A stretch of DNA of 64,000 nucleotides from the NCBI GenBank assembly GCA_964543815.1, contig CAZIZG010000003.1, forward strand, positions 17,833 to 81,832, in the 5' to 3' direction. Source of the stretch: an uncultured Bdellovibrionales bacterium (GTDB lineage: Bacteria; Patescibacteriota; Minisyncoccia; Moranbacterales; UBA1568). A program made the position numbers and the translations under genes. The first letter of the stretch is position 1, and each line of letters begins with the position of its first letter. A model generated the notes under the pieces. It ran no database searches, was not told the DNA's origin, and worked only from the letters and a program-made list of their open reading frames with translations. Shown here piece after piece: positions 2,816 to 55,676 of the stretch.

Positions 2816-2857
2816 ATGAATTTGTATTTTTATTTTTCTGCCCAGAGCAGACAATCC

Positions 2858-3838
2858 TCAACTCGGTTTTTCCCCTAACTTCTCTATCACTCGGAGCTTG
2901 GCGCTCCTGGCCCGTGAATTGTCAGCTATTTCTCGTTCGCTCGCCACGATTGGCCGCTTGGTAAGTATTCTAGCCTTTGGTGCTTGACCACAACGACATA
3001 CCGGAAAATTCGGCGGACAGATACAACCCTGAGCTACTTCTCGAAAAAATTGCTTGACCCGGATATCCTCACCAGAATGAAAAGTGATGATAGCAAGTCG
3101 TCCTCCCGGATGAAGAACCTGAAGAGCCTGCTTAAGAAATGATTCCAGGTGATCAAACTCGCGATTGACCGCAATTCGGAGCGCCTGAAAGGTCTTGGTA
3201 GCCGGATGTATCTTCATCGTCATCCGCTTACGCTTTGGGTAGACCTCAGCAATAAGCTCAGCCAATTGATGCGTCGTCTCAATCGGTTGTTCCTCACGCT
3301 CCTTCACGATACCGTGGGCAATCCGCCGATACTCCGTTTCGTCACCGGCGCGCAGCATATCCATGAGCGTCTGCTCAGAGTAAGTATTAACGATGTCGCG
3401 GGCTGTGAGTGTCGTTCGCTGATCGAGTCGCATATCAAGTGGCCCGTTCTGCTGAAAACTCAACCCCCGAGCACCGTCCTCAATCTGATCTGAAGAAAAA
3501 CCCAAATCAGCGAGTATCGCATCCACCGATGGAACGTTCAGTCGTTCCAAGACCGTCATGAGATCCGAATAATTACTCCCCACAAGGACAAGTCTCCCCT
3601 CCTTAGAGGCTTGTGTAAGTGATTCATCGGATGACACAGCGGTCTTGAAACGACTGAGAGCCCTCTCATCAGCATCAAGCCCGATAACGCGTCCGGTTGG
3701 TGATACTTCTGCGAGCATCATCCTTCCATGCCCGCCACCGCCTACGGTTGCGTCTACCACCGTCATTCCTTTTTGAAGGTGCAGCATTTTTCGTACTTCC
3801 TCGTACAACACCGGTACATGCTTCGTCATACAATCCAA
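2858..3838 (-). CDS. rsmH: 16S rRNA (cytosine1402-N4)-methyltransferase RsmH/MraW
   Basis: MTKHVPVLYEEV...DATVGGGGHG... is a typical RsmH N-terminus with the SAM motif. Position after mraZ. Confidence 0.85.
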   Translation of the reverse strand: MDCMTKHVPVLYEEVRKMLHLQKGMTVVDATVGGGGHGRMMLAEVSPTGRVIGLDADERALSRFKTAVSSDESLTQASKEGRLVLVGSNYSDLMTVLERLNVPSVDAILADLGFSSDQIEDGARGLSFQQNGPLDMRLDQRTTLTARDIVNTYSEQTLMDMLRAGDETEYRRIAHGIVKEREEQPIETTHQLAELIAEVYPKRKRMTMKIHPATKTFQALRIAVNREFDHLESFLKQALQVLHPGGRLAIITFHSGEDIRVKQFFREVAQGCICPPNFPVCRCGQAPKARILTKRPIVASEREIADNSRARSAKLRVIEKLGEKPS

Positions 3839-5934: not shown

Positions 5935-6408
5935 TTATTGTTTACAGAGCTCCTTTATATCGCTCAATACTTCTTCCGCATGACCATCAGGTTTGACGTC
6001 CTCGTAGACTTTGGCAATCTTTCCTGTCGGATCAATAAGAAACGAAGTCCGGAGAATTCCCATATATTCTCGACCCATAAATTTCTTCTTGGCCCATACC
6101 CCATAGAGCGCCACTACTTTCTTTTCTTCATCGGCCAGCAGTGTGAATGGTAACTCGTATTTCGTAACAAATTTGGCGTGTTTCTTTACTGCATCGACAC
6201 TAATACCAAGTATCACTGCCTTGGACCGTTTGAATTTAGGAAAGTTATCCCGGAACTGACAAGCTTCTACCGTGCACCCCGGGGTATCATCTTTGGGATA
6301 AAAATAGAGTACCACCCACTTCCCAACATATTCTTTAAGCGTATGCATTTTCCCCTCCTGATCAGGCAAAGTAAAATTCTTCGCCTTGGTTCCTTTTTTG
6401 GGCAACAT
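5935..6408 (-). CDS. bcp: Thiol peroxidase / peroxiredoxin Bcp
   Basis: 157 aa containing YFYPKDDTPGCTVEAC, the AhpC/TSA peroxiredoxin motif. Confidence 0.85.
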   Translation of the reverse strand: MLPKKGTKAKNFTLPDQEGKMHTLKEYVGKWVVLYFYPKDDTPGCTVEACQFRDNFPKFKRSKAVILGISVDAVKKHAKFVTKYELPFTLLADEEKKVVALYGVWAKKKFMGREYMGILRTSFLIDPTGKIAKVYEDVKPDGHAEEVLSDIKELCKQ

Positions 6409-6439
6409 ATTTCCTGGTTCGTTATCGATTAGTTTGGAA

Positions 6440-6866: not shown

Positions 6867-8093
6867 TCAAGTCTTGAGGTATTTTCTTTCCTTGAGGCGT
6901 TCCGGAAAGTATTCTTGCTCTGCTTCTTCGGCATTCTTGAAGTCAGGGGTGTACTTATATCCTTTGCCATAGTCAAGCTCTTTCATGAGCTTAGTCGGCG
7001 CATTCCGCAAATGGAGCGGGACCGGTTCGTTCGGAAATTTTCGTACGTCCTCCTTGGCTGCTCCATAAGCAACATAGAGGGCGTTTGATTTTTTGGAGAG
7101 CGCGAGATAGACAACGGCCTGAGCCAAATGGACCTCACACTCCGGCATTCCAAGCATCTGACAAGCCTGAAAAGCCGCCACTGCCTGTGGCAGCGCGAAG
7201 GAATTAGCAATACCGATATCCTCAGACGCAAAACGGACTAGCCGTCGTGCCACGTAGATCGGATCCTCACCCGCTTCGAGCATCCGAGCGAGATAATAGA
7301 GCGAGGCATTCGCGTCGTTCCCCCGCAGTGACTTATGGAGAGCTGAAATGATGTTATAGTGCTCCTCGCCATTTTTGTCATAGAGAAGGTGCGAGCGCTT
7401 CACTATTTGCTCCACAATCTTTGTATCAATATGCGTATGTTTGAGGGCACAGGCCTCGAGCGTGTTAAGCGTCATCCGAGCATCACCTCCCGAAACAGCC
7501 GCGATAAATGAGAGCGCCTCGTCATCTGCTTGTACTTTTCTCCCAAAATATTCCTCACTTTTTTTGAGAGCCCGCTTCATGAGACCAACGAGCGTCTCCT
7601 CGTCATGCTTTTCCAAGACCAAAACTCGCGCTCGCGAGAGGAGGGCAGCATTGACCTCAAAACTCGGGTTCTCCGTCGTCGCTCCGATGAGCGTCACGGT
7701 TCCCCGCTCGACGTGCGGGAGCAGACTATCTTGTTGTGACTTATTAAATCGGTGAATTTCATCGACAAAAAGAATCGTTTTCTTTCCCTGTTTCTTGTTT
7801 TCCTCCGCTTCGGCAAAAACGGCTCGCATATCCTTCACCCCGCTCCCGACAGCCGAGAGCTGGCGAAATTCAGCCTGCGTAGCCTGGGCAATAAGAAGAG
7901 CGAGCGTTGTCTTGCCACTCCCGGGTGGTCCCCAAAAGATGAGTGATGGGACATGGTCAGCCTCAATCGCTTCACGGAGAAACGATCCTTCGCCAAATAC
8001 TTTTTCCTGTCCAAGAAACTCCTCTAGTGTCTGGGGTCGCAATCGTTCAGCGAGTGGAATATACGTGTTGGAATCAGACATACTCTGTTTCAA
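6867..8093 (-). CDS. rarA: Replication-associated recombination protein A (AAA ATPase RarA/MgsA)
   Basis: 408 aa with Walker A GPPGSGKTT, Walker B ILFVDEIHRFNK, and C-terminal MgsA helical domains. Confidence 0.85.
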   Translation of the reverse strand: MKQSMSDSNTYIPLAERLRPQTLEEFLGQEKVFGEGSFLREAIEADHVPSLIFWGPPGSGKTTLALLIAQATQAEFRQLSAVGSGVKDMRAVFAEAEENKKQGKKTILFVDEIHRFNKSQQDSLLPHVERGTVTLIGATTENPSFEVNAALLSRARVLVLEKHDEETLVGLMKRALKKSEEYFGRKVQADDEALSFIAAVSGGDARMTLNTLEACALKHTHIDTKIVEQIVKRSHLLYDKNGEEHYNIISALHKSLRGNDANASLYYLARMLEAGEDPIYVARRLVRFASEDIGIANSFALPQAVAAFQACQMLGMPECEVHLAQAVVYLALSKKSNALYVAYGAAKEDVRKFPNEPVPLHLRNAPTKLMKELDYGKGYKYTPDFKNAEEAEQEYFPERLKERKYLKT

Positions 8094-39925: not shown

Positions 39926-39962
39926 GAAAAAAGAGCCGTGGGGGCTCTTAGAGAGAAGTGAA

Positions 39963-40317
39963 CTAGGTCGCTCGAGCGGCCTTCAGCTTGAGTTCGGCGA
40001 TTGCCCTCTTGAAGCCTGCTTGTCGCTGAAGCACTGGCTTCGGACGGACGAGAAAGTCTGCCGATTCGAGCCGCGCACCACCGGTTTCTTCACGCTTCCA
40101 GTAGTTGATACGGACTCGCTTGTCCTGCTTGCTCATCGCGTAGATGAGCTTCATGTGCTTGAATTCAGGAATCTCGCACACGTTGTGGTTGTTTCCTTGG
40201 GTGTCCTCCTGACCACTCAGCCAGTTCTCCACAACCGCGAGCTGACTCAGGAGCGCGCTCACTCGCTCTACGGCTTCAGGAGTATGTAGCTCAACAAAGT
40301 ATTTCAAGGGTGCCTCC
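39963..40317 (-). CDS. Hypothetical protein (about 118 aa)
   Basis: ORF starting MEAPLKYFVELHTPEAVERV. GC-rich. No known domain. Confidence 0.35.
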
Positions 40318-40440
40318 ATGAGGAATGCGATGGGAACGCTGTCCCACAGTGGACATACGATACCACATCCGAGAAAAAAATCAAGGAATGGATCCGGACA
40401 TTCTTTTCTTGACAATTTGTTCATTTCCGGGGAAAATACT

Positions 40441-41115
40441 ATGTCTGCCTGCCACATGGCGGATTTTTGTCCCTCCCACAACTCCAAGGAGTATCACGTG
40501 CACATCATCATCGCCCCCTGTTTCACCAACGGTGACCTCCCGGGCAACGCCCTGGAACTATGTGAGCTGTTCATGCTCCGCCGTGAAGAAGAGGTGCCGA
40601 TCGAAAGCTACACCATCGTCTACGATGGCAAGGAACACGTGGCTCAGGTCGGCCCCGGCAATCACCAGCCGGCCCTCTTCCTTCTCTACTGCATGACCAA
40701 GTCGGCCGCTCCGGCCTTCGAGTTCACGCCTGAGATGCGCCAGCTCGCCCGAGACTACTTCGGTGACGAGATCATGGCAAGCGCCATCCCCTTCGACACC
40801 CGGTACACGACCGTCCACGCCCTCCACGGCCATACGGTCTACATCCGTCTCACCCTCAAGCCGGGCTATCGCAACTGCATGGCCGCCAGCCGCACGGTCG
40901 AGGAAGTCATTGCGCACGGCTGGGACATGCAGGCAGAACTCGGGCCGCAATCGGAAGCGCCCTTCCTGCGCCTGGCCCTCGAACGGTTCTTCGCAGCCAT
41001 CGAAGCAAGGACGCTGCAAGTGGCCGATACCGAGCGGGGACCCTGGCCGACACCCATGTGGGCTGACCGAGCCACCACGCTGCAGCAACTCCTCGGCCAG
41101 ACCGAGACCACCTAA
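40441..41115 (+). CDS. Hypothetical protein, paralog A of a two-member family in this window
   Basis: About 224 aa. Shares ...LFLLYC..., ...LKPGY..., ...HGW..., LGP.S.AP... blocks with the ORF at 54986..55606. High GC. Followed by a terminator. Confidence 0.5.
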   Translation: MSACHMADFCPSHNSKEYHVHIIIAPCFTNGDLPGNALELCELFMLRREEEVPIESYTIVYDGKEHVAQVGPGNHQPALFLLYCMTKSAAPAFEFTPEMRQLARDYFGDEIMASAIPFDTRYTTVHALHGHTVYIRLTLKPGYRNCMAASRTVEEVIAHGWDMQAELGPQSEAPFLRLALERFFAAIEARTLQVADTERGPWPTPMWADRATTLQQLLGQTETT

Positions 41116-41136
41116 TCCGCAACGCGGAGACATACA

Positions 41137-41162
41137 AGCCCGACTCATGCCGGGCTTTTTAT
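41137..41162 (+). terminator. Rho-independent terminator
   Basis: AGCCCG-actcatgc-CGGGCT followed by TTTTATT. Confidence 0.55.
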
Positions 41163-41198
41163 TATGCAACTCTTGATACATCGCCTCCGAAAGGAAAG

Positions 41199-42430: not shown

Positions 42431-42892
42431 CTACAGCGCGCCCTGGGTGGCCAGATGGAGACTCTCCATGAGACCAAAGATGTCTACCAGTGCCAGACGT
42501 TGCTCACCGGTATCAACCGTCGCCATGATGTGCGTGAGCGTATCCGGGTGAGGATGCCCATCCACCAGTCGCACTTGATCTGCGGTGATGTCAAGCACTT
42601 CGGAAACACCATCGACGACGACGCCGATGATGCGGCCAGAAAGGTTCAACACCACGACCACCGTCAGCGGACCGAGACTGCTCTCACAACCCGCCACGAT
42701 GCGCAAATCGATGATGGGGATAGTGACCCCGCGAAGATTGAACACTCCCCTGAGAAACGCTGGCGCCCCATCGATGTGACTCGGCTGCTCGTAGGAGCGG
42801 ATTTCCTGAGCGAGCAGGATATTGAGTCCGTAGTACTCGCCACCGAGACGAAATACCAGGTACTCCCCAGCCAAAGAAGCAGCTTCGGTCAT
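42431..42892 (-). CDS. cheW: Chemotaxis coupling protein CheW (orphan)
   Basis: 153 aa, EYLVFRLGGEYYGLNILLAQEI...VFNLRGVTIPIIDLR... is the CheW-domain pattern. High GC. Confidence 0.8.
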   Translation of the reverse strand: MTEAASLAGEYLVFRLGGEYYGLNILLAQEIRSYEQPSHIDGAPAFLRGVFNLRGVTIPIIDLRIVAGCESSLGPLTVVVVLNLSGRIIGVVVDGVSEVLDITADQVRLVDGHPHPDTLTHIMATVDTGEQRLALVDIFGLMESLHLATQGAL

Positions 42893-43291: not shown

Positions 43292-43330
43292 TATAAAAAG
43301 CGAAAGGTCCCGGCAAAACGCGTTTGCACG
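43292..43330 (-). terminator. Near-perfect 30-bp palindrome functioning as a minus-strand terminator
   Basis: GGTCCCGGCAAAACGCGTTTGCACGGGACC. On the minus strand it is followed by UUUCGCUUUUUAUAU. Confidence 0.5.
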
Positions 43331-43622
43331 GGACCAGTCCTTTCAGACAACTGAGCGGGGCGAGGCTTTTGGGGCCACAAGACCGCTTCATTGTGTAACC
43401 CGGACAGGGCTACGTTAGTCGATGAAGGCTTACGCTCCCTAGGGGGAACAACCTTTCTTCGAACTCGGTGGAATCACACCGAGGGTTTACTGCAGCGGAC
43501 GTGGTTTCCCGTGGGACTCCTCATCCAGTTTCTCCTCGTTTTGGTTGATGACTCTGGTGGTACTCTCTCGAGTATACACCCTTGAGGGATCTCCGCGGCC
43601 GTATCTTCGCGACCGCAGTGCG

Positions 43623-43823
43623 TCAGCTCACCGGCTTCGGAGGCACGGTACCGACGCTGTTCAGCAGGAACCCCGGGTAGGACTCGGGTCCCTTGCCGAA
43701 CAGACCCTGGCATGCGAGCCGGAAACCCATTCGCGCGACCTGCAGCAGATGTACCGTGAAGGTAAACGCTGCGGCCAGAACGGGAACCCGAATCCAGGCG
43801 GCCAGGGCATGCACGAGGCTCAT
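43623..43823 (-). CDS. Small hydrophobic protein (66 aa), RBS-supported
   Basis: MSLVHALAAWIRVPVLAAAFTFTVHLLQVARMGF..., with AAGGGAGG 5 nt before the ATG. Confidence 0.4.
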   Translation of the reverse strand: MSLVHALAAWIRVPVLAAAFTFTVHLLQVARMGFRLACQGLFGKGPESYPGFLLNSVGTVPPKPVS

Positions 43824-43872
43824 GGAGCCTCCCTTCAGTGGGCGCCGAAGCGTCAGGCCAGCGTGGCCAGAC

Positions 43873-44160
43873 GCACGGGCGCGGCCACCGGGTCGCGCAG
43901 CACCGAGGTGCCGGCGCCGTGGCGGCCGTTCTTCAGGTCGACGAAGTTCGAGAGCACGCCGATCACGTTCACGGCGCACCCACCAGGCCCGAGGCGGGGC
44001 CGGCGGCCAGCGGCAGCAGGTTGGTTTCCTGGGAAGCGAACACGCCGGAACGCGCCAGGGACACGCTGCCGAAGCCCGAGTCGAAGAGGCCGATCTTGCC
44101 GGTGCCTTCGCCGCCGCTGCCTTGCAACACACTCACCTTGCCGGTGGTGGGGTCTTTCAT
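43873..44160 (-). pseudogene. Frameshifted gene for a Gly-rich hypothetical protein (about 100 aa)
   Basis: AAGGAGA RBS, then ATG at 44160 giving MKDPTTGKVSVLQGSGGEGTGKIGLFDSGFGSV...GLVGAP, then stop. The +2 frame continues as VNVIGVLSNFVDLKNGRHGAGTSVLRDPVAAPVRLATLA. A 1-nt loss in ccg(g)tg is implied. Confidence 0.4.
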
Positions 44161-44401
44161 TAGGATCTCCTTGATCAAGTTGCGGGAACTCCGCTCGACA
44201 ACCAAGAGGTTGAACGAGCGGATAATTGAAGCCTAGTCATAAGCCACAAGTATCCGCTCGCTCGAAACTATTTCACTGCAAAAATTGAAAGAACTTTCCT
44301 ATCGATAGTACCAAAAAGTTTACTACCGTTCAAGCCAAAAGCCCGAAAGAAAACTCTACGCCATATATCTATTTCTGTCAACCCCTAGAACCACAAAAAA
44401 G

Positions 44402-45043: not shown

Positions 45044-45160
45044 GGCACCCTCCTTTGCATACGTTGCAATTGATAAAAGACTCGAAAGGAACTACGAACA
45101 CTCCTTTATAGCATAAAAATACATTTTTGTCAATATGAGAAAACATCCGCAAAAAATAAA

Positions 45161-45216
45161 AAATCCCCCGGTCCGCGGTACGGAACGGGGGTATGGGGCC
45201 TCAGTGAGGCGTTGGA
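45161..45216. repeat. 56-bp direct repeat, copy 2 (terminator module)
   Basis: Identical to 44402..44457. Lies just downstream (minus strand) of gene 45228..45602. Confidence 0.8.
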
Positions 45217-45227
45217 GTGGCCGTGGC

Positions 45228-45602
45228 CTACTGCTGGCCGCTGGCGCCGGCGTCCTGCTGGCTGAACAGCTTCAGGCCTTCGGCGGCGGCGACGGCCATC
45301 TCGCGCACGGCCTGGTGCGACATGATGCCGATCACGCGGTTGTCGCCGTCGATGAACTTGATCGCGGCCGGCTTCTTGCCCTTGGCCGGGAGCAGCTTGC
45401 CGGACCAGGAGTTGACCTCGCCGCCGTCCGGGGCCGTGCCATGGAACTTGATGTAGCCCGACGTGTCGGTGACGATGGCCTTGTCCTGGCGGCGCTTGCG
45501 CTGCTGCTGGCCGGAACCGATGCCGATCGACTGATCGCTCGCCAGCGAGCCGAGGGCGGCAGCCAGACCAGCCATCAGGGCGTTCACGTGATGCTTCTGC
45601 AT
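45228..45602 (-). CDS. Secreted hypothetical protein (about 124 aa)
   Basis: GGAGA RBS, then MQKHHVNALMAGLAAALGSLASDQ, a signal-peptide-like N-terminus. High GC. The longer overlapping ORFs in other frames are GC artefacts. Confidence 0.45.
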   Translation of the reverse strand: MQKHHVNALMAGLAAALGSLASDQSIGIGSGQQQRKRRQDKAIVTDTSGYIKFHGTAPDGGEVNSWSGKLLPAKGKKPAAIKFIDGDNRVIGIMSHQAVREMAVAAAEGLKLFSQQDAGASGQQ

Positions 45603-45747
45603 GGGAATCTCCGAGGGTTGCAGTTGATGCTTCAAGAGCCCGACACGGGTCTTGTAAAGCAAAGATCGACCATAGAGGCCGACAAAAGAGGAGTGTACAG
45701 CAAATACCCTCCCCTGTCAAGGGTGGTTATCCACAAAAAATCAATAT

Positions 45748-45915
45748 GCTATTTGAAGAAGTAGGGATGAACAGCTAGACCCAAGTAGTAGGGCCACAAG
45801 AGCACGGCGAGCACCCCCTGCCAAAAACTCAGGTGCAAAAAGCCGATAGTAAATATCCAAGCCGCCATCCACAGGCCACCAGAAAAAAGATGGTTTTCAA
45901 TTTTTACCTTTTCCA
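45748..45915 (-). CDS. Small two-TM membrane peptide (55 aa), hypothetical
   Basis: MEKVKIENHLFSGGLWMAAWIFTIGFLHLSFWQGVLAVLLWPYYLGLAVHPYFFK. Immediately upstream of pspC on the same strand. Confidence 0.3.
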
Positions 45916-46694: not shown

Positions 46695-47063
46695 CTACCA
46701 GCTCAAGACCCGCCCGATGACCTCGATCAGCTTGTTCGGATCAAACGGCTTCACGAGCCAGCCCGTTGCACCGGCAGCCTTGCCCTTCATCTTCATCGCG
46801 TCACTCGACTCGGTGGTGAGGAAAAGAATGGGCGTCTTCGGGAAACGGGGATCCGCGCGCATCTTCTCGGTCAGCGTGAGACCGTCCATGCGTGGCATGT
46901 TCTGGTCGAGGAGCACGAGGTCAAACTTCGCGCCCCGCTCGATCTGCTCCCACGCATCCTGACCGTCCACCGCGAGGAGCACCTCGTAGCCGGCGTTCCT
47001 AAGCGTGAACGACACCATCTGGCGCATCGACGCGCTGTCATCAACCACAAATATCGTCTGCAT
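46695..47063 (-). CDS. cheY: Chemotaxis-type response regulator CheY (orphan)
   Basis: 122 aa, IFVVDDSASMRQMV...DLVLLDQNMPRMDG...LTTE...K...GWLVKPF. High GC. Confidence 0.8.
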   Translation of the reverse strand: MQTIFVVDDSASMRQMVSFTLRNAGYEVLLAVDGQDAWEQIERGAKFDLVLLDQNMPRMDGLTLTEKMRADPRFPKTPILFLTTESSDAMKMKGKAAGATGWLVKPFDPNKLIEVIGRVLSW

Positions 47064-47975: not shown

Positions 47976-50633
47976 TCACATAATATCAATTAAATCTTCC
48001 TTCGTTGCCACCTTAAAATTCTCAAATCCGATCGCTCTAAAATGTTTCTCTCCACAGAAAATCTTCTGCTGCTCAACCAATGGTAGTTCAGCAGTCAAAT
48101 CCTCATATCCAAATTTTGTTTCCCGTACAAGATATAATTTTTCTCCCTCACTCGTATTCCATACAATTGCCCAGTCCGGAATATATCCCCCAAGCGGAGT
48201 ATCCACCACAAACCCGCGCGGAAGCTTTGTATACACCCGGACGTTTTGACTTTGTTCCAAATGCTCAGCAAATAATTTTTCGCCTTTACTATCAAACGCT
48301 ACACGATCAAATACCGACTTATCACTCTCAATACTCTTACTTGGCAACACTTCGAAATCCTTAAAAAGTACATCAACCTCCCAATAATCACCCGTTGGAA
48401 TATACTTCAATCCTTCATTGATCAATAAATCATTCAGACACCCATTCAAAATCACAACGACACTCCGAATGTACTCTTCTGGATTATCAAGCAGCAAATC
48501 AAGATTCTCTACACGAGACAAAGCATCGAAAACGGTCCTCCTCGTTAACCCAGTTTCACGCGCAATGCGATCAACCACATTCTGCAAAAATACCTTCCGA
48601 TCCAACTTTGCCCCAGCGGACTGGCCAGCATATACCGTCTGTATTTTGTTTCTTTCATCGAAATAGACATTAACCTTCTCAACCGTCACGATCAAATTCG
48701 AGATATTCCGCTCGTTGATCTTTTCGACAGCATTCCCGATCAATTTTTCTGTTTGGACTTCGATATTGAACTTCGTCCGCTGGCTAATTCTCTTCCAAAG
48801 CTCCTTAAAATCATCTTCGCCAATATACTTGGTCGGCCGCACCAACACCTTCTTTTCCTTGGCATCTGTCATTTCTACTTGTTCTGTATAACCAGCCTCG
48901 GTAAATTCCGCCTGCAACTGCCCGACATACTCCCGATAGCTCTCATTTGCCACTACCGTCAGAGTATTTATTCGGGGATCATACACGCGATTACCATTCA
49001 CATCCACAGCCAAGCGCAAACCGCGGCCGATTTCTTGCCGCTTTTTCATGAGAGAATTCGTCTCGCGCAAAGTACAAATCTGAAAAATATTCGGGTTATC
49101 CCATCCCTCCTTCAAAGCAGAGTGCGAAAAGATAAACGAAACAGGCTCAGAGAAAGAAAGCAATCGTTCCTTATCCTTCATGATCAAATCATAGGCCTCC
49201 TTGTCTATCTTGGAATCACCACGCGTATCCTGAAAAACCACCTGCCCCTTCTCTTTCTTACTGGCAAAATATCCTTTGTGAACAGTCTGTACATCGGCAT
49301 CCTTGAACTGATCATAATTCCCCTTCAATCTCTCAAATTCCTCAACAAAAATCTTCCGAATCAAACTCTCTTCGTGGGTATAATTATCAACTCGATCAAT
49401 GAAAAACAATGACAAAACTTTGATACCCATTCCAAGCTCTTCTTGTTTATCAAAATGCGCTTTGATCGTCTCGCGAATCTGCGTGCGAAATACGGCTTCT
49501 TTATTCTCACTCCCCTCATCCAAGCGATAATACTTTCCATCCGAAAGCTCGACGCGATTGTGTTGCGCATTAACGTCGTTCACTTGTAGTCCAGCATATG
49601 CCGCATTCTTGGTCTTTCGCGCCACATCATCCCCTGCCTTCAAGACAATTTCTTTTCGGACAAACTCATCATTGGCATTTTTTATTTCTACTAAAACCTT
49701 TGCCTTTGGGGACTCCCCTTTCTTCGTTTCAATACTCCGCACCCTGAAAACCAATGCATTCGAATCATCATCCTTCACACCAAATACCGATATCTTTTTG
49801 ACTAACCCTTTCTTATAAGCATCAATCGGCGTCAGGCGATAGACAAGATTATGGATCTCTTTGTGCGTCGCGCTATATCGTAACTTGAAAAGCGGAGCCA
49901 AATCAGCAATGGCCGCCTTCGAAAGTTCTGACTCCATATTCTGCGGCTCATCCATGATCACCACTGGTCGAGTTGCTGCCACGAGACTGATCGGACTTTC
50001 ACCATTGAAGCGATCCGGCGTCGAGCGCATGATATTAGTATCACTATTGAACGACTGAATCGTCATCACCATGATTTGAATGTCCAGCCCTTGTGCGAAA
50101 TCACGCACGCGCGAAAGTTTACTAGAATCGTATGCAAAGTATCCATACCCCACACCATACAAATCTCGAAAGTGCTCTTTGGTTTGTTCGAGTGTTTTCA
50201 AAACGCCCTCACGGATGGCCACGCTCGGAACAAGAATGATAAACTTCTTCAATCCATATTTCTTGTTGAGTTCAAAGATTGTCCGAAGATAAACATAGGT
50301 CTTTCCAGTACCCGTTTCCATTTCAATGGAAAAATCGAAACCACTCAACTTTTTATCTGGTTCACCACCAAACACATATTCCCCAAATGCACCAGCAAAC
50401 TCGCTAATATCATCTACTTTTTCAAAAAGGGAATTTCTTTTCTGTATAGAAAATAAGTTTTTTAAAATTCTATCCTGTTCAATCTCCAACTCATTTTTTA
50501 TTACAGAAACAGCCGAGCGCAACTCAAAAGACTCTTCACTTCTTACAAAGTTTCTTCCAGTATCAAAGATATCCACGATCGCATCGACCGCTTCCAGCTG
50601 ATACCCTAGATCTTTTGAGAATTTAAATTTCAT
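47976..50633 (-). CDS. res: Type III restriction enzyme, Res subunit (SF2 helicase-like endonuclease)
   Basis: 885 aa with Walker A METGTGKTY, DEAH-like VIMDEPQN, helicase motif VI-like IGRGLR, and a C-terminal endonuclease region. Last gene of the operon. Confidence 0.85.
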   Translation of the reverse strand: MKFKFSKDLGYQLEAVDAIVDIFDTGRNFVRSEESFELRSAVSVIKNELEIEQDRILKNLFSIQKRNSLFEKVDDISEFAGAFGEYVFGGEPDKKLSGFDFSIEMETGTGKTYVYLRTIFELNKKYGLKKFIILVPSVAIREGVLKTLEQTKEHFRDLYGVGYGYFAYDSSKLSRVRDFAQGLDIQIMVMTIQSFNSDTNIMRSTPDRFNGESPISLVAATRPVVIMDEPQNMESELSKAAIADLAPLFKLRYSATHKEIHNLVYRLTPIDAYKKGLVKKISVFGVKDDDSNALVFRVRSIETKKGESPKAKVLVEIKNANDEFVRKEIVLKAGDDVARKTKNAAYAGLQVNDVNAQHNRVELSDGKYYRLDEGSENKEAVFRTQIRETIKAHFDKQEELGMGIKVLSLFFIDRVDNYTHEESLIRKIFVEEFERLKGNYDQFKDADVQTVHKGYFASKKEKGQVVFQDTRGDSKIDKEAYDLIMKDKERLLSFSEPVSFIFSHSALKEGWDNPNIFQICTLRETNSLMKKRQEIGRGLRLAVDVNGNRVYDPRINTLTVVANESYREYVGQLQAEFTEAGYTEQVEMTDAKEKKVLVRPTKYIGEDDFKELWKRISQRTKFNIEVQTEKLIGNAVEKINERNISNLIVTVEKVNVYFDERNKIQTVYAGQSAGAKLDRKVFLQNVVDRIARETGLTRRTVFDALSRVENLDLLLDNPEEYIRSVVVILNGCLNDLLINEGLKYIPTGDYWEVDVLFKDFEVLPSKSIESDKSVFDRVAFDSKGEKLFAEHLEQSQNVRVYTKLPRGFVVDTPLGGYIPDWAIVWNTSEGEKLYLVRETKFGYEDLTAELPLVEQQKIFCGEKHFRAIGFENFKVATKEDLIDIM

Positions 50634-50637
50634 CCTT

Positions 50638-51381
50638 TTAACTAATGTTGTTATCCAAAGAAAACATTTTCACAAAAAACTTCCCCTTATCTGTTAGAGT
50701 TATATCCTTATTCTTATTAGAGAACTCTATTAATCCATTTGTATGTGAATATGCCATGACCCCCTTAGGAATGCCACGCTCCGTATAATCCCCAACAGTC
50801 CACCTGATACTACCCTCATACTGATATACAGATTCAATAAGAAAATTAAAGTCATTATAATATTCAGACTTTTTAAATGATTCATACTCTTCATTCCAGC
50901 TAACCGTCGGATCAATATTTCTGATTGCCTTTTCTTTCTTTACTTTTTCTTCAAGAACAACCAGCTTTTCAGTCTCAGCTTCTTCAAATCTCTTTTCGGC
51001 ATCGCTTAATTTCCTTTGTTCATCTATCCTTATTTTTCTTTTCTTTGTTCTATCTTCTTCATCTTTTTTAAAGGCTGGAATTAAAAACCAATCCGGAAAC
51101 TTCCAAATAACAAAGTACGTCAAAATAAATGGCATTATCCATGAAATCCAAAAATAAGGATCACTCACATTAAAAAATTCCTGGCTTAAATAATCACTCT
51201 TAAGTAATTGTTTTGACTTCCAAATTCTATCTTCGCTCACCAAAAAGACAGTGACGAGTAATTTCCAATGAAAAACTGACCACCAAATAGAAAACACACC
51301 ATAGATAGGAGTATTTACCTTTTCTTTCCAAGACTCGCTTATTGAGTCAGTAATTTCATTACTAACTTTTGGAATTTTCAT
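50638..51381 (-). CDS. Unknown 2-TM membrane protein embedded between mod and res (protein Y, 247 aa)
   Basis: Two TM helices (IYGVFSIWWSVFHWKLLVTVFLV; FWISWIMPFILTYFVIWKF), a highly charged coiled coil (KKDEEDRTKKRKIRIDEQRKLSDAEKRFEEAETEK...) and a C-terminal domain of about 90 aa. There is a 4-nt gap to res and an 11-nt gap to the upstream gene. Confidence 0.6.
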   Translation of the reverse strand: MKIPKVSNEITDSISESWKEKVNTPIYGVFSIWWSVFHWKLLVTVFLVSEDRIWKSKQLLKSDYLSQEFFNVSDPYFWISWIMPFILTYFVIWKFPDWFLIPAFKKDEEDRTKKRKIRIDEQRKLSDAEKRFEEAETEKLVVLEEKVKKEKAIRNIDPTVSWNEEYESFKKSEYYNDFNFLIESVYQYEGSIRWTVGDYTERGIPKGVMAYSHTNGLIEFSNKNKDITLTDKGKFFVKMFSLDNNIS

Positions 51382-51392
51382 AACACTCCAAG

Positions 51393-52379
51393 TTATTTAT
51401 CAGATTTAGTTAACTCAATAACTTGTCTCACTGGGTTTCCGGGATTACTTATGGTTTTTAAATAGCCCGTGTCCTTGGTATCAAAAATTGCTCTAGTTAA
51501 CTCAGCAAGCATTGCGTTGGCCGTCTCCTTATCATTTTCGCTTTCGGTCGGACGAATAGAATTTAATAGTGCTTGATGGGAATCAAGAGCATTCTGACGC
51601 TGGGTATTTACATAATAGAGGTGTTTTTCAGCAGAATAATTTCTATTGAAATGAGCAATAGCGAAACCTCCAATTGAAAGAATCAAAAACTTTAGCAATA
51701 ACCCCTGATGAAAAATCTCGGTTAGAACTTGACTAGTATTTTGATTCTGGACTCTTACAAACCAATCGGTATCCCCTGCAAGCAAAAGAATAGCAATAAT
51801 CAGTGTCACTCCAGCGCTCAAAGCCATATATGTCTGAGCGTTTTTTGCCGCTTGGTCATTTTTATCAGCACAATCCCCAAAAAACCTTCCATACTTTATA
51901 GCCTCAATCTTCTGGGCCTCATTCTGAACAGTACTGAGTAAAGACTGTGCTTTTGTAATCTGTGCCTCAAACTCCCCTATCTTACCCTGAGCGTCGATAA
52001 TCTGCCTCTTAAACTCCTCATTTTTAGCAGGATCTTTCAAAACAAGGAACGTGTAAAATGGTCCCATGCTTTGATGTAACTCAAACTCTTTATTTCTTAT
52101 GGTATCAAGCCATTGTTGTCTCTCGTTAATATTCTGAAAACCAAGAATTTGATTTTTCAGCTGCAAGAATTGCTGTAAATGAGTACGGATACTGTTTAAA
52201 AACTGTGGCGGAAAATTTTCAAGATCCGCATGATTAAAAATCGTATCAAAAACTTCCCTTATCCCCTCAAAAGAGGGCTTCGACTCTTCAAGGCTATAAG
52301 AACCCAGGTCCTTTCTTAACAAAGAAGTCCAATCTAAGCTTCTATATTGTTCTATAGAATCGCGAAGTTGCTGATCCAT
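51393..52379 (-). CDS. Unknown protein with an N-terminal helical domain and a 2-TM hairpin, embedded between mod and res (protein X, 328 aa)
   Basis: A soluble helical N-terminus of about 190 aa, then TYMALSAGVTLIIAILLLAG and LLLKFLILSIGGFAIAHF TM helices, then a C-terminal tail of about 70 aa. Lies 5 nt after the mod stop. Confidence 0.6.
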   Translation of the reverse strand: MDQQLRDSIEQYRSLDWTSLLRKDLGSYSLEESKPSFEGIREVFDTIFNHADLENFPPQFLNSIRTHLQQFLQLKNQILGFQNINERQQWLDTIRNKEFELHQSMGPFYTFLVLKDPAKNEEFKRQIIDAQGKIGEFEAQITKAQSLLSTVQNEAQKIEAIKYGRFFGDCADKNDQAAKNAQTYMALSAGVTLIIAILLLAGDTDWFVRVQNQNTSQVLTEIFHQGLLLKFLILSIGGFAIAHFNRNYSAEKHLYYVNTQRQNALDSHQALLNSIRPTESENDKETANAMLAELTRAIFDTKDTGYLKTISNPGNPVRQVIELTKSDK

Positions 52380-52384
52380 ACGGA

Positions 52385-54271
52385 TTAAATCACTTTCAAA
52401 ATTACATTCTTCGAAATATTCACTTTTGTTGTGTCATCAAGCGCAGAATCGAGACACACAAAAATATCTTCTAGTTTGAGACCGAGAGACTCGACTTGCT
52501 CTTTAGAAATTTTTTCCACAAATGTTACAGCAAGCTTTTTATTGTCATCAATAACAACCCAAGAATTAAGATCATCCTTTTCCTGTGTAACCTTAGCATT
52601 TAAACTAAAACCTTCTTTAACAAGAATTTCGTATACGACCGCACGCTCATCGTAACCGTCAACAAGTGGATACTCGAGAAAAAGTTTAGACTGAGCCAAG
52701 AGCTTTTCTTGATCATCATTTTCGGTCAAAACACTCCACTGTCGATAATTTGATTTTTGAAGTACAAAAGTCTTGAAGCCCGTATCTCCTTTATCAACTT
52801 TCTCTCCTGCGCGCCGGATACGCTCTCGAGAAATATCAGCAATGGTCTTGTATCCAGCTTTGTATGCCTCACTTTTCTCATCCGTCGCTTCTGGCAACTG
52901 CACACAGATCCACTTCCGATTCCCATCATCCTCATCGTTCAAATCCATCACTGCATGCGCTGTCGTTCCGGAGCCAGCAAAAAAATCAAGCACCAAATCA
53001 TCTTTTCTTGTGCCAACAGTCAAACACTTTTTTATCAAATCGATTGACTTAGGAAAATCAAAATAAGAACTACCCTCAAAAAGCTCTCTGAATATTTCCT
53101 TACCGAACTCGTTATTTATTTCACTTTCGATCCAAAGCGCCTTTTGTTTTGTAGTTGCTAACTCGCCACTTTCATCATGCAAATAGTCTTTTCTATATAC
53201 TCTCCAGGCCCCCGTATTTACTTCTTTAGCCAAGAGATTGCTTATATTTTCTGCAACTTTTTTCTGACCCCAGGTCCAACAACCCTCTACTCCTTTTGAA
53301 TTAAGTGGCATTGCCTCAACAATAAAGCCTTCATCCCTCTTTAAAGAAACCTCGTTGGTTTTTGGATTTACATAGATAGGGTAAAAAAGATTCGGGCGAT
53401 TTGAACGATTAAAGACCGGGTTTCGATTCCTTAATTCTAACAATCGAAATTTTCCATTCTTATCTTCTTTATTATACTCAGAAATCTTTTCTTCACTTTT
53501 CACAATTTCATACAGACCACCGTCTTCTATATTTTTAGCATATACCAAAATATACTCATGTGTTTTAGCAAAGTACCTATCAAGAGTACGTCCTCGAGGA
53601 TTTAATTGAACAATAATTTGAGCCACAAAATTCTCCTCACCGAAAACCTCATCCATGATGAGATGAAGATTGGCGGCTTCGTTATCATCGATAGAGATAA
53701 AAATCACACCATCTTCACGAAGAAGATTTTTTGCCAAAAACAGTCGCGGATACATCATGGTAAGCCAGTCACTATGAAAACGACCGTTCTTCTCGGTATT
53801 GGCAGTCATTTTGATCCCGCCTTCTGTCTGACCGGTCTGCTCATAATAATCAGCGACGCTCTGCGCGAAATTATCCTTATATACAAAATCATGCCCCGTA
53901 TTATACGGTGGGTCAATATAAATCATCTTAATCTGTTCGCGATATTTCTTCTGGAGCAATTTCAATACCTCGAGATTATCTCCTTCGATAAAAACATTCT
54001 CGGTCTTGTCCCAATTCTTGCTCTCATCTTCCTGAGGAAACAGAGTTCCTTTGGCTGTCTCACGAATCAGCCGAAAGGCATTACTTTTTCCAGCCCAGTT
54101 CAAACCATACTTTTCTTCTCTGCCAGCAATTCCCTCTGCGTCAAAAAACTTCTTGAGCGCATCAAAATCAACCGAGCCATCTTTTACAAACTGCGGAAAT
54201 ACCCTCCGAAGCTTCTCCAGATTCTCATTCTGTATGTTTTCAGATGTTGTAGAAACTTTTTCAATAGTCAT
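52385..54271 (-). CDS. mod: Type III R-M DNA methyltransferase, Mod subunit (N6-adenine, beta class)
   Basis: 628 aa with IYIDPPYNTGHDF (DPPY motif) and FDFFAGSGTTAHA (SAM motif I). Confidence 0.85.
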   Translation of the reverse strand: MTIEKVSTTSENIQNENLEKLRRVFPQFVKDGSVDFDALKKFFDAEGIAGREEKYGLNWAGKSNAFRLIRETAKGTLFPQEDESKNWDKTENVFIEGDNLEVLKLLQKKYREQIKMIYIDPPYNTGHDFVYKDNFAQSVADYYEQTGQTEGGIKMTANTEKNGRFHSDWLTMMYPRLFLAKNLLREDGVIFISIDDNEAANLHLIMDEVFGEENFVAQIIVQLNPRGRTLDRYFAKTHEYILVYAKNIEDGGLYEIVKSEEKISEYNKEDKNGKFRLLELRNRNPVFNRSNRPNLFYPIYVNPKTNEVSLKRDEGFIVEAMPLNSKGVEGCWTWGQKKVAENISNLLAKEVNTGAWRVYRKDYLHDESGELATTKQKALWIESEINNEFGKEIFRELFEGSSYFDFPKSIDLIKKCLTVGTRKDDLVLDFFAGSGTTAHAVMDLNDEDDGNRKWICVQLPEATDEKSEAYKAGYKTIADISRERIRRAGEKVDKGDTGFKTFVLQKSNYRQWSVLTENDDQEKLLAQSKLFLEYPLVDGYDERAVVYEILVKEGFSLNAKVTQEKDDLNSWVVIDDNKKLAVTFVEKISKEQVESLGLKLEDIFVCLDSALDDTTKVNISKNVILKVI

Positions 54272-54275
54272 ATCT

Positions 54276-54452
54276 TTATTTCTTCCAATCCTTAACCATC
54301 AATCCACCGCGAGTTCTTTTGACGACTACCTTTTGCTTTTCTTTCCATCCAAGCTCTCGAACGAGTTCGATCGGGAGCGTGAGGCCGATGGATTTACCAC
54401 CAAGTTTGGTCAGTTTTCTGACTTCTTTTTCGTTAGTCGCTTTGTTTGCCAT
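54276..54452 (-). CDS. AbrB/SpoVT-like small DNA-binding protein, possible controller of the R-M operon
   Basis: 58 aa, MANKATNEKEVRKLTKLGGKSIGLTLPIELVRELGWKEKQKVVVKRTRGGLMVKDWKK, a swapped-hairpin-type motif. Its stop is 4 nt before the mod ATG. Confidence 0.5.
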   Translation of the reverse strand: MANKATNEKEVRKLTKLGGKSIGLTLPIELVRELGWKEKQKVVVKRTRGGLMVKDWKK

Positions 54453-54470
54453 ACTCGAAAAATACGTAAT

Positions 54471-54725
54471 TTACCCTGTCAAATACGATTTGAGTCTATT
54501 TTTTAAAAACATTTTTCCATGGTAAGTTTTTAGATACTTTTCCCTATGCGTTGCATCTTGTTGATTGAGACACGCTTCATAGTACGCCAATTCAAGTGGT
54601 CGTCTATCTTTGGTTGATTCTACGTGCCCCTTTTTATGTTCCTCAAATCGTAATTTCAAATCCTTCGTATATCCAGTATAGAACTTCCCATCTTTTGCAG
54701 ATTTAAGTACGTAGGTATAGTACAT
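54471..54725 (-). CDS. GIY-YIG nuclease-family protein (UPF0213), second divergent copy
   Basis: 84 aa, MYYTYVLKSAKDGKFYTGYTKDLKLRFEEHKKG... Heads the low-GC R-M island. Confidence 0.75.
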   Translation of the reverse strand: MYYTYVLKSAKDGKFYTGYTKDLKLRFEEHKKGHVESTKDRRPLELAYYEACLNQQDATHREKYLKTYHGKMFLKNRLKSYLTG

Positions 54726-54985
54726 AACCTGACAGATTTGAAATTATTTAACAGGGTGAATTACGTAACTCCATTATACTCCCCTCCAAAAAACAAGCAA
54801 AAACCGGCCAAAAAGCCGGTTTCTGGAATATACTCATCTATATACTCTACCCCTCCGCCAGGACTTCAAAGCCACCGTAGGCGACGTATCCCTTGACTTT
54901 CCCGAAAAATCACGCAAACATGGGAGCTATCTGTTGCGCCCCTGTAACAGTCTCTTGTTCTTCCCCGAAAACCAGTGAGGTATCC

Positions 54986-55606
54986 ATGGATAACACCGCC
55001 CCGATTGTGCCGACGTTCAATGGTGAGCTCGCACATGGCGCCGCCACCCTCTGCGATTTCTTCCTCGTTCCTACCGAGGACCAAGTCCCGGTGACCAAGG
55101 TCACCATCCTGGTCGATGGAGACAAACACAAGTTTGCCGTTGGGAACGGCAAGTACCGGTCGACCCTCTTCCTCCTCTACTGCGCGGTGCTCAAGCAGAG
55201 CACGTCGTTCACCTTCGATGCCGAGCTCAAGGCCATGCTCGTGCCCTACTTCAGCGCCGAGCTCGTCGACCAAGCCAAGCTCCCCGAAACCGAGCATGTC
55301 GCGCTCGGGCACCTGGTCATCGGCAAAAGCATCCAGGTGAACCTGGTCCTCAAGCCCGGCTACGAACTACCGAAGAATCCCGGCCGGTCCCTGCGCAAGC
55401 TCATCGAGCACGGCTGGAATCAGCGTAAGCAGCTGGGACCGAACTCGGCCGCACCACTCATCCGGCAAGCCGTCCAGCAATTCATCGAAGGCGAACGCAG
55501 TGGTGCCATCCGTGTCCACAACAGTCGTCGCCAGGATGTGTGGCCTGACTACGACTGGGTAGACAATGTTCGGTCTCTCCGTCGTCTGCTCGCTGTTTCG
55601 CTGTAA
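54986..55606 (+). CDS. Hypothetical protein, paralog B of 40441..41115
   Basis: About 207 aa sharing the LFLLYC / LKPGY / HGW / LGPxSxAP blocks with paralog A. High GC. Followed by a terminator. Confidence 0.5.
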   Translation: MDNTAPIVPTFNGELAHGAATLCDFFLVPTEDQVPVTKVTILVDGDKHKFAVGNGKYRSTLFLLYCAVLKQSTSFTFDAELKAMLVPYFSAELVDQAKLPETEHVALGHLVIGKSIQVNLVLKPGYELPKNPGRSLRKLIEHGWNQRKQLGPNSAAPLIRQAVQQFIEGERSGAIRVHNSRRQDVWPDYDWVDNVRSLRRLLAVSL

Positions 55607-55645
55607 TCACAGCAGCGAAAAAGCAAGTAGCGCCGATGCCAACAA

Positions 55646-55676
55646 CCCGACACTCACCGAGTGCCGGGTTTTTTCT
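55646..55676 (+). terminator. Rho-independent terminator
   Basis: CCCGACACTC-acc-GAGTGCCGGG (one mismatch) followed by TTTTTTCTT. Confidence 0.55.

Follow-up and report, generated by a model that had tools for sequence, protein, structure and literature searches.

Paralogous genes carrying the DapD N-terminal helical domain without its catalytic beta-helix in a Patescibacteria genome

Tetrahydrodipicolinate succinyltransferases of the lysine pathway (DapD, EC 2.3.1.117) of the Escherichia coli type comprise an N-terminal helical domain, a catalytic left-handed parallel beta-helix of hexapeptide repeats, through which the trimer and the active-site groove are formed, and an active-site-bearing C-terminal domain that contributes to the binding of CoA and substrate. 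Long-form DapD, represented by the structures from Campylobacter jejuni (PDB 2RIJ) and Pseudomonas aeruginosa (PDB 3R5A), has a large N-terminal globular domain, but its members are full enzymes. The distal N-terminal subdomain of the P. aeruginosa protein (PaDapD) has been described as a four-stranded antiparallel sheet with flanking helices, situated outside the active site (PMC3281039). In the literature, this structure paper was the only useful one for PF14805, the Pfam family of the DapD N-terminal helical domain, and no paper was found naming the Vibrio parahaemolyticus protein VPA0580 (PDB 2QHQ), which comes from structural genomics, has no assigned function and hence offers no functional lead. 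Here, we describe two genes, copy A and copy B, in a 64,000-nt stretch (the window) of contig CAZIZG010000003.1 from an uncultured bacterium of the Patescibacteriota (GTDB order Moranbacterales), whose products carry the helical domain of DapD and end before its catalytic part.

PF14805, whose cut-off is 25 bits, matched the last ~75 amino acids of copy B above it with 27.5 bits and reached 17 bits on copy A, below it. Searched against the PDB, a family profile (A1, 17 sequences) retrieved DapD chains only (E = 3.6 × 10−5), with profile positions 131-203 aligned to their first ~70 residues, and Foldseek matched the C-terminal domain to the DapD N-terminal region (27-31% identity, probability 0.97-0.99). 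We conclude that the C-terminal third of both proteins is the N-terminal helical domain of E. coli-type DapD. What follows this domain in the enzyme is absent: neither protein gave a Hexapep or Hexapep_2 match at E < 1, no beta-helix appears in the secondary structure of the AlphaFold2 models, and the full-length DapD model TIGR00965, with a cut-off of 375.4 bits, reached 19.9 and 12.9 bits. The chains end at residues 205 and 206, where the DapD beta-helix would start, with a stop codon and then a terminator. Because the reading frames stop at this point and yield no hexapeptide match, we regard the proteins as the accessory N-terminal portion of DapD with the enzymatic portion missing; lacking the catalytic left-handed beta-helix and C-terminal domain, they cannot be tetrahydrodipicolinate succinyltransferases.

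The preceding ~125 amino acids constitute an alpha/beta domain (hereafter, the N-domain) with no Pfam match even at E < 10 and no Foldseek match in the PDB. The AlphaFold2 models are confident, with a predicted local distance difference test (pLDDT) of 92.2 and a predicted template modelling score of 0.88 for copy B and a pLDDT of 87.9 for copy A, and they show N-domain strands at residues ~36-43, 46-51, 74-76 and 116-122 with helices flanking, followed by a three-helix C-domain. As modelled, the N-domain appears to fit the published description of the distal PaDapD subdomain (PMC3281039). From an apparent structural resemblance to long-form DapD (2RIJ), at 9-10% identity and with no sequence-level match, we infer a domain-to-domain correspondence, and a further apparent resemblance to VPA0580 comes with 7-10% identity and no detectable sequence relationship. 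Both proteins are soluble, having neither a signal peptide nor a membrane segment. Scans of the two proteins against Pfam, NCBIfam, PHROGs and PADLOC returned the weak to moderate DapD N-terminal match and no full-length model. The original prediction, which was made from the sequence and assigned no family, therefore stands insofar as no curated full-length model covers the proteins and the N-domain lies outside Pfam, but not for their C-terminal third, which is recognisable.

The paralogy of the two genes, also part of that prediction, was borne out by pairwise alignment (BLASTP, 34% identity and 56% positives over 197 amino acids, E = 1 × 10−42), which contains the collinear blocks LFLLYC, LKPGY and HGW...LGP.S.AP quoted there. 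The family is rare: when 1.84 billion representatives were searched exhaustively with its profile, 92 proteins were returned at E ≤ 1 × 10−3, about 20 of them full-length (~200 amino acids) and about 60 consisting of the N-domain alone (~120-140 amino acids); a scan of metagenome contigs for more sequences added three fragments only. Named records are Patescibacteria, also known as the Candidate Phyla Radiation (CPR), namely metagenome-assembled genomes of Candidatus Moraniibacteriota (locus L011 below) and Candidatus Paceibacterota, and the gene content of the window (DUF5671, type IV pilus genes, an NMN transporter with NrtR) is consistent with such bacteria. The stand-alone proteins of ~125 amino acids, which occur in CPR genomes, correspond to the family N-domain over 124 columns (hhalign of profile A3 against A1, probability 99.95, E = 1.9 × 10−37; hidden Markov model matches at E = 1 × 10−21 to 1 × 10−10), and Pfam gave nothing consistent for 16 of them at E < 10.

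Pairwise identities separate three orthologous types, A, B and C, with 45-97% identity within a type and 30-37% between types. Type A comprises window copy A, L009A, L018, L020 and L012; type B comprises window copy B, L009B, L011, L007, L010, L015 and L017; and type C is represented by L009C and a partial copy in L011. On the 12-kb contig L009 the three lie on one strand in the order A, C, B, and L011 carries C followed by B. Because the paralog types and the order and orientation of A, C and B recur between genomes, the duplications predate the divergence of these genomes. All three types are therefore ancient, and the window has two of them; neither a C-type copy nor a remnant of one was detected there. 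A strand-loop-helix motif, GxGK[YH][KR]S, is kept by B-type proteins, stand-alone N-domain proteins and the other A-type homologues, and most of the proteins in these three groups also keep a (D/E)T.H motif. Window copy A is alone among A-types in having neither, with GPGNHQP and DTRY in their place. The types further differ in isoelectric point (pI). Basic values were obtained for B-type proteins (pI 7.8-9.5, C-domain ~10-11). Window copy A is acidic, and of the four other homologues of its type three are likewise acidic (5.0-6.2) and one (P0015) is basic (9.3). The single C-type protein computed, from L009, is acidic (4.8).

Each copy forms a self-contained monocistronic cassette, consisting of a -35 element, a hairpin, a pyrimidine/CA-rich leader, a Shine-Dalgarno sequence, a biased coding sequence and a terminator, that has been conserved since the duplication (Table 1). 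A TTGAC[AT] -35 element lies at the same relative position in 12 of 12 family genes of all three types, followed by a 17-18-nt spacer, a weak -10-like hexamer (GAAAAT, GAGAAT, CACAGT and similar), a hairpin 6-9 nt further on that begins with CUG and ends with CAG, and, 3' of it, a pyrimidine-rich tract, a CAACAACC-like motif and a strong Shine-Dalgarno sequence. The promoter-like site of copy B, with its weak -10, was missed by the consensus scan and was read from the sequence and the orthologue alignment. Across the 12 upstream regions, RNAalifold predicted a 7-bp leader helix with 94% of cells paired and compensatory double changes in four of the seven pairs. None of 500 shuffles reached the observed covariation score or percentage paired, and partner columns that had been slid were 25-52% paired. 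With 12 related sequences, the covariation lends support to the helix but is not decisive. A leader covariance model (R1) found only family leaders in the 148 kb of window and loci, at 42-73 bits, the next best hit scoring 16.6 bits. Rfam gave no match, either across the window at gathering thresholds or in the vicinity of A and B at E < 1, and the two stand-alone N-domain genes examined (L022 and L023) have no such hairpin.

The hairpin was the 5'-most element in all eight leaders folded as single sequences, and we predict that it acts as a 5'-terminal, mRNA-stabilising stem-loop. Such stem-loops stabilise bacterial mRNAs, as in the E. coli ompA leader and the Bacillus subtilis aprE and ermC leaders. 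The leaders of copies A and B resemble these in having a short hairpin a few nucleotides from the predicted start, together with other features of high expression, and in a structure that is kept through compensatory changes, not as sequence; they differ in that the start is a predicted one. A regulatory role for the inverted repeat, either as a transcription attenuator (hairpin plus U-tract) or as a DNA operator that binds a repressor and overlaps the transcription start, is a less likely explanation to which we allow a modest chance. Both window hairpins pass a terminator-like scan, L007 and L010 carry UCUUUUUGUU after the stem, and the outer CTG...CAG does not vary, which would be in keeping with a motif recognised by a protein. 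On the other hand, the stems have only 6-9 bp, most orthologues have a poor U-tract and, given the predicted start, there is no upstream room for an alternative anti-terminator structure. Because stem sequence and loop length (6-8 nt) differ between copies within one genome, unlike the target of a single dimeric DNA-binding protein, the element is better understood as an RNA structure than as a DNA operator of fixed spacing.

Both genes were thought to be closed by perfect rho-independent terminators, and each is indeed followed by a GC-rich hairpin and a U-tract. The stem of copy A is perfect (7 bp, 41136-41157, free energy -11.5 kcal/mol, z = -3.7, 20 nt after the stop), but that of copy B has one A.C mismatch (55644-55670, -15.4 kcal/mol, z = -2.5, 37 nt after the stop). 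They lie in gaps of 83 and 76 nt shared with a convergent YgaP-like gene and a convergent DUF1428 gene, respectively. In the window, CCGGGYTTTTT occurs at both family terminators only, against 0.11 occurrences expected. The terminators are conserved between orthologues, that of copy B being near-identical in L009B, L011, L015 and L017, and similar between paralogs (CCCGAC...CCGGG[CT]TTTT). Near-identical terminators (CCCGACAC..GTGCCGGGTTTTT) also close unrelated small plus-strand genes just upstream of family genes, at ~3130-3160 of L009 (gene 2833-3081) and ~7840-7880 of L010 (gene 7283-7825). A hairpin of this kind may terminate a whole class of genes throughout the lineage, and not those of the family in particular. 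These small genes were considered as degenerate family copies and rejected (tblastn E > 0.1).

One protein, P0105 (422 amino acids), has the N-domain attached to the N-terminus of an entire DapD of the E. coli type: the first ~120 residues match the N-domain profile (hhalign probability 99.4, E = 5 × 10−21) and the remainder matches E. coli-type DapD structures (E = 1.8 × 10−60), which makes it a Rosetta-stone-like link between the orphan N-domain and the enzyme. A Pfam scan of the longer family matches gave no other informative fusion. Such a fusion, together with the homology of the C-domain to the DapD segment packed on the beta-helix, would also suit a split enzyme, in which A and B are the detached N-terminal half and assemble with a separately encoded beta-helix subunit. 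We consider this improbable. No hexapeptide-repeat gene adjoins any of the ~12 family loci examined, every family gene examined has its own terminator and in most loci runs opposite to its neighbours, genomes hold two or three divergent paralogs of different charge, and stand-alone N-domain versions exist without even the helical domain. In addition, CPR bacteria usually lack amino-acid biosynthesis.

Copies A and B differ strongly in composition from the rest of the window. The GC content of the coding sequences is 0.63 (A) and 0.60 (B) versus 0.486 for the window, and at third codon positions (GC3) it is 0.81 and 0.77 versus a mean of 0.53 (standard deviation 0.10) over 66 window open reading frames (ORFs). 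The original prediction placed each gene in its own high-GC island. GC is raised, but a 200-bp profile confines the rise to the ~620-bp coding sequences, so that "island" overstates the case. GC3 is 0.72-0.90 in all 12 family genes, in surrounding DNA with GC of 0.46-0.58. Specifically, in L007 the family gene adjoins secE-nusG-rplK-rplA, and it shares the codon usage of these four genes: NNC/(NNC+NNT) is 0.61 in the family gene, 0.60 in the four and 0.40 in other genes of the locus, CTC accounts for 0.70, 0.67 and 0.45 of leucine codons, and NNG/(NNG+NNA) is 0.71, 0.76 and 0.58. In the window, the NNC fraction reaches 0.82 in A and 0.71 in B versus 0.29 in 17 other genes. The simplest reading of this codon usage is that the high GC of A and B stems from selection for translation in highly expressed genes and not from a foreign origin; had there been an old transfer, amelioration would be expected across orthologues with as little as 45-60% identity to the window copies. 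The conserved cassette and the ribosomal-protein-like codon bias together account for the picture of a GC island closed by a terminator.

The original prediction allowed that the genes could be island cargo, either a mobile-element passenger or an immunity-like gene, and as a rival explanation we considered horizontally acquired, GC-rich cargo of this kind, defence-associated genes included. Their composition is deviant, the gene is duplicated, copy B lies beside a type III restriction-modification (R-M) system with MazE-like and GIY-YIG genes, and the ratio of non-synonymous to synonymous substitution (dN/dS) of 0.2-0.6 is moderately high. We nevertheless reject this interpretation as very improbable, as the bias at synonymous sites, the conserved synteny and the lack of phage, plasmid or PADLOC matches count against it. 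The GC excess sits at third codon positions, matches the ribosomal-gene profile and persists across genomes of different GC; gene order is kept with DUF5671, T2SSE, YgaP, DUF1905, TspO, DUF1428 and similar genes. PADLOC gave 0 matches and PHROGs nothing below E = 0.36, searches of viral contigs, GenBank phages and plasmids gave no relative, no integrase or transposase lies nearby, and the window contains no tRNA. The R-M block (47976-54725, minus strand) is itself absent from the related loci L009, L015 and L017, which carry a family gene, and for this reason it is likely that the block, not copy B, is the acquired island. Its GC is low (0.32-0.42), with an NNC fraction of 0.17 versus 0.29 in other genes. 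As to dN/dS, orthologue pairs gave 0.23-0.58; selection on the family is purifying, though not tight, and codon bias probably lowers dS.

The neighbourhoods of the family genes are chromosomal, with small-gene neighbours conserved in loci L009, L015, L017, L018 and L020. A YgaP-like transmembrane protein recurs after A and DUF1428 near B, and other recurring neighbours are DUF1905, TspO, DUF1398, NUDIX, DUF1801, GIY-YIG, T2SSE and DUF5671. In most loci the family gene is solitary and opposite to its neighbours, with its own terminator in every locus examined. The window conforms to this: as was originally noted, A and B are plus-strand genes in a minus-dominated region, where nearly all other credible genes, including those for FtsI, RsmH, PepA, MgsA, a MiaB-like protein, PilM, PilC, PilB, UvrA, UvrC, NrtR and Pif1, lie on the minus strand.

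The start of copy A was originally placed at ATG 40441, which is probably 57 nt too far upstream. We consider GTG 40498 the more likely start because a Shine-Dalgarno sequence precedes it by 6 nt (Table 1), A-type homologues have their first residue at the corresponding position (M[QR][IT][IM]I[AH]P), the promoter-like -10 ends at 40437, and a start at ATG 40441 would make the conserved leader hairpin coding. On the minus strand, an ORF without Pfam match (39963-40487) has its own terminator at 39931-39949. At its longest, this ORF extends over the copy A promoter and leader, so it probably starts further downstream, e.g., at ATG 40319. That copies A and B are GC-rich non-coding DNA, open in several frames by chance, can be discounted almost entirely, for while long antisense ORFs cover both genes (40558..41181, 207 amino acids, and 54866..55312, 148 amino acids, minus strand), the sense-frame proteins are conserved (E = 1 × 10−42), are modelled at pLDDT 88-92, are under purifying selection among orthologues, and use TTA, CTA and TCA 0, 1 and 0 times per gene. 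The antisense ORFs were rejected as genes, being the codon-aligned antisense frame, and their length follows from the near absence of TTA, CTA and TCA codons from the sense genes.

Overall, the account that we favour, and hold with fair though far from complete confidence, is that copies A and B are ancient paralogs of a DapD accessory module, non-catalytic, highly expressed and each in an autonomous cassette. According to this account, the family would be an orphaned accessory module of DapD that was kept after the catalytic part was lost. The proteins would be abundant and cytosolic, produced from mRNAs that the hairpin stabilises at their very 5' end, and would act by binding a ligand or partner protein, or as a scaffold, and not by catalysis; possibly they still recognise a partner or ligand related to DapD. 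The most likely role for them, as far as can be judged from sequence and models, is that of an abundant non-catalytic binding protein. The acidic A and C types and the basic B type may form a hetero-oligomer. A more far-reaching version, which we put forward as speculative and rather doubtful, is that exaptation of the DapD module gave rise to a CPR-specific, very abundant non-enzymatic system, built as a hetero-oligomer of opposite charges and expressed under an undescribed, family-specific leader RNA element. Its role could be, for example, that of a scaffold, a factor binding nucleic acid or a partner enzyme, or a sensor of a host-derived metabolite related to diaminopimelate or lysine.

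Several points weigh against the favoured account. High expression is read from codon usage and cassette features alone, the ribosomal-gene codon comparison comes from the relative L007 only, as the window contains no ribosomal-protein genes, and in the window both copies run counter to most other genes, an unusual arrangement where expression is high. No operon partner, fusion or published record narrows the function of A and B further. The hetero-oligomer is suggested by complementary pI and co-occurrence only, and the A-type protein P0015 is basic. Furthermore, the leader covariation comes from 12 related sequences, and the 5'-terminal placement of the hairpin depends on a transcription start predicted from the spacing of 17 nt between TTGAC[AT] and the -10-like hexamer. 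Finally, the fusion to DapD is known from one protein cluster, on a Logan contig of 1641 bp.

Table 1 Coordinates of the two cassettes, of family genes in two related loci and of the restriction-modification block. Positions are those of the window unless a locus is named.
Feature	Coordinates	Strand	Description
Copy A promoter-like site	40409..40437	+	TTGACA 40409-40414, 17-nt spacer, GAAAAT 40432-40437; 10/12 consensus matches
Copy A leader hairpin	40443..40464	+	UCUGCC-N8-GGCGGA, then UUUUUG; model R1 44.7 bits
Copy A Shine-Dalgarno	40486..40491	+	AAGGAG, 6 nt before GTG 40498
Copy A coding sequence (likely start)	40498..41115	+	A-type paralog, 205 amino acids, pI 5.1
Copy A N-domain	~40498-40869	+	
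Copy A DapD-N-like helical domain	~40879-41112	+	
Copy A intrinsic terminator	41136..41162	+	AAGCCCG-N8-CGGGCUU and U-tract
Copy B promoter-like site	54893..54921	+	TTGACT 54893-54898, 17-nt spacer, AAACAT 54916-54921
Copy B leader hairpin	54931..54950	+	CUGUUGC-N6-GUAACAG, then pyrimidine-rich tract; model R1 52.2 bits
Copy B Shine-Dalgarno	54975..54980	+	GTGAGG, 5 nt before ATG 54986
Copy B coding sequence	54986..55606	+	B-type paralog, 206 amino acids, pI 8.9; C-domain pI ~11
Copy B N-domain	~54986-55363	+	
Copy B DapD-N-like domain	~55373-55603	+	
Copy B intrinsic terminator	55644..55676	+	11-bp stem with one mismatch and U6
Family genes in L009	172-777, 3282-3914, 7808-8434		
Family genes in L011	2-466, 3552-4172		
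Type III-like R-M gene Res	47976-50633	-	
ORFs without Pfam match between Res and Mod	50638-51381, 51393-52379	-	
Type III-like R-M gene Mod	52385-54271	-	
MazE-like ORF	54276-54452	-	Within R-M block
GIY-YIG ORF	54471-54725	-	Within R-M block

Other features of the window and of related loci were recorded alongside the two genes. Between the GIY-YIG gene and copy B, a strong terminator-like hairpin (54798-54825, minus strand) has 12 pairs and a T-tract, with no obvious minus-strand gene ending there. It may serve to block antisense transcription running over copy B, or it may lie at the boundary of the R-M insertion. A gene for a single-domain, CheY-like receiver (46695-47063, minus strand) has a GC3 of 0.84 and the same bias towards C- and G-ending codons as A and B. 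By its codon usage it is probably another highly expressed gene, and a CheW gene lies near it at 42431-42892. The segments 43300-44300 and 45100-45800 (GC 0.61-0.66) are open in several frames on both strands; their translations are rich in Arg, Ala and Pro, with no Pfam match, no convincing ORF and a trivial tandem repeat only, and they may represent an unusual or frameshifted gene or else DNA that does not code for protein. ORFs of ~200 amino acids without Pfam matches were considered as hidden paralogs, at 43545-44174 (+), 45135-45764 (+) and 45130-45720 (-) in the window and at L015:5622-6308 and L020:721-1344; all were rejected (hhalign probability < 1%). In the lower-GC relative L023, a stand-alone N-domain gene (6013-6420) is located between clpB and a superoxide dismutase gene accompanied by an unknown ORF, a neighbourhood that faintly suggests a link to stress. 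The GC3 of this gene, 0.43, is once more higher than that of its neighbours (0.28-0.42).

Genomes of CPR bacteria are small and rich in unannotated genes, among which abundant lineage-specific proteins are candidates for host-dependent biology. Codon bias matching the ribosomal-protein genes of a relative can flag unknown genes that are likely to be highly expressed, and such bias can be mistaken for horizontal transfer. For DapD, a core biosynthetic enzyme, a non-catalytic accessory module seems to have outlived the catalytic part, to have given rise by duplication to three lineages and to have undergone heavy optimisation. In addition, the N-terminal domain of long-form DapD, which has never been explained, appears to be linked to a free-standing family, opening its role to study in isolation, and the small family-specific leader hairpin that travels with the gene is a candidate for a new cis-acting RNA element. 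Taken together, the family may serve as an example of enzyme-module exaptation, with the function proposed here from sequence, and of codon bias that mimics an island in a CPR genome.

Compared with known systems, residues ~130-205 of A and B match the N-terminal helical domain of E. coli-type DapD (PDB 3BXY, 1KGQ, 3TK8), and the family alignment shares with it the conserved ...IExxW..R..L.P....P.(I/L)R.A... and W..(W) positions. They differ from DapD in having no hexapeptide repeats and no active-site-bearing C-terminal domain, and in the extra domain of ~125 amino acids in front. Two of the three defining parts of DapD were tested and are absent, and the window proteins are not DapD. P0105 has the N-domain and then the DapD helical region, in the same order as the window proteins, but retains the beta-helix and C-terminal domain. 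Likewise, A and B stand outside any described defence or mobile family. As far as profiles and models indicate, they combine PF14805, a domain already known, with an undescribed N-domain that appears structurally related to the N-terminus of long-form DapD and to VPA0580.

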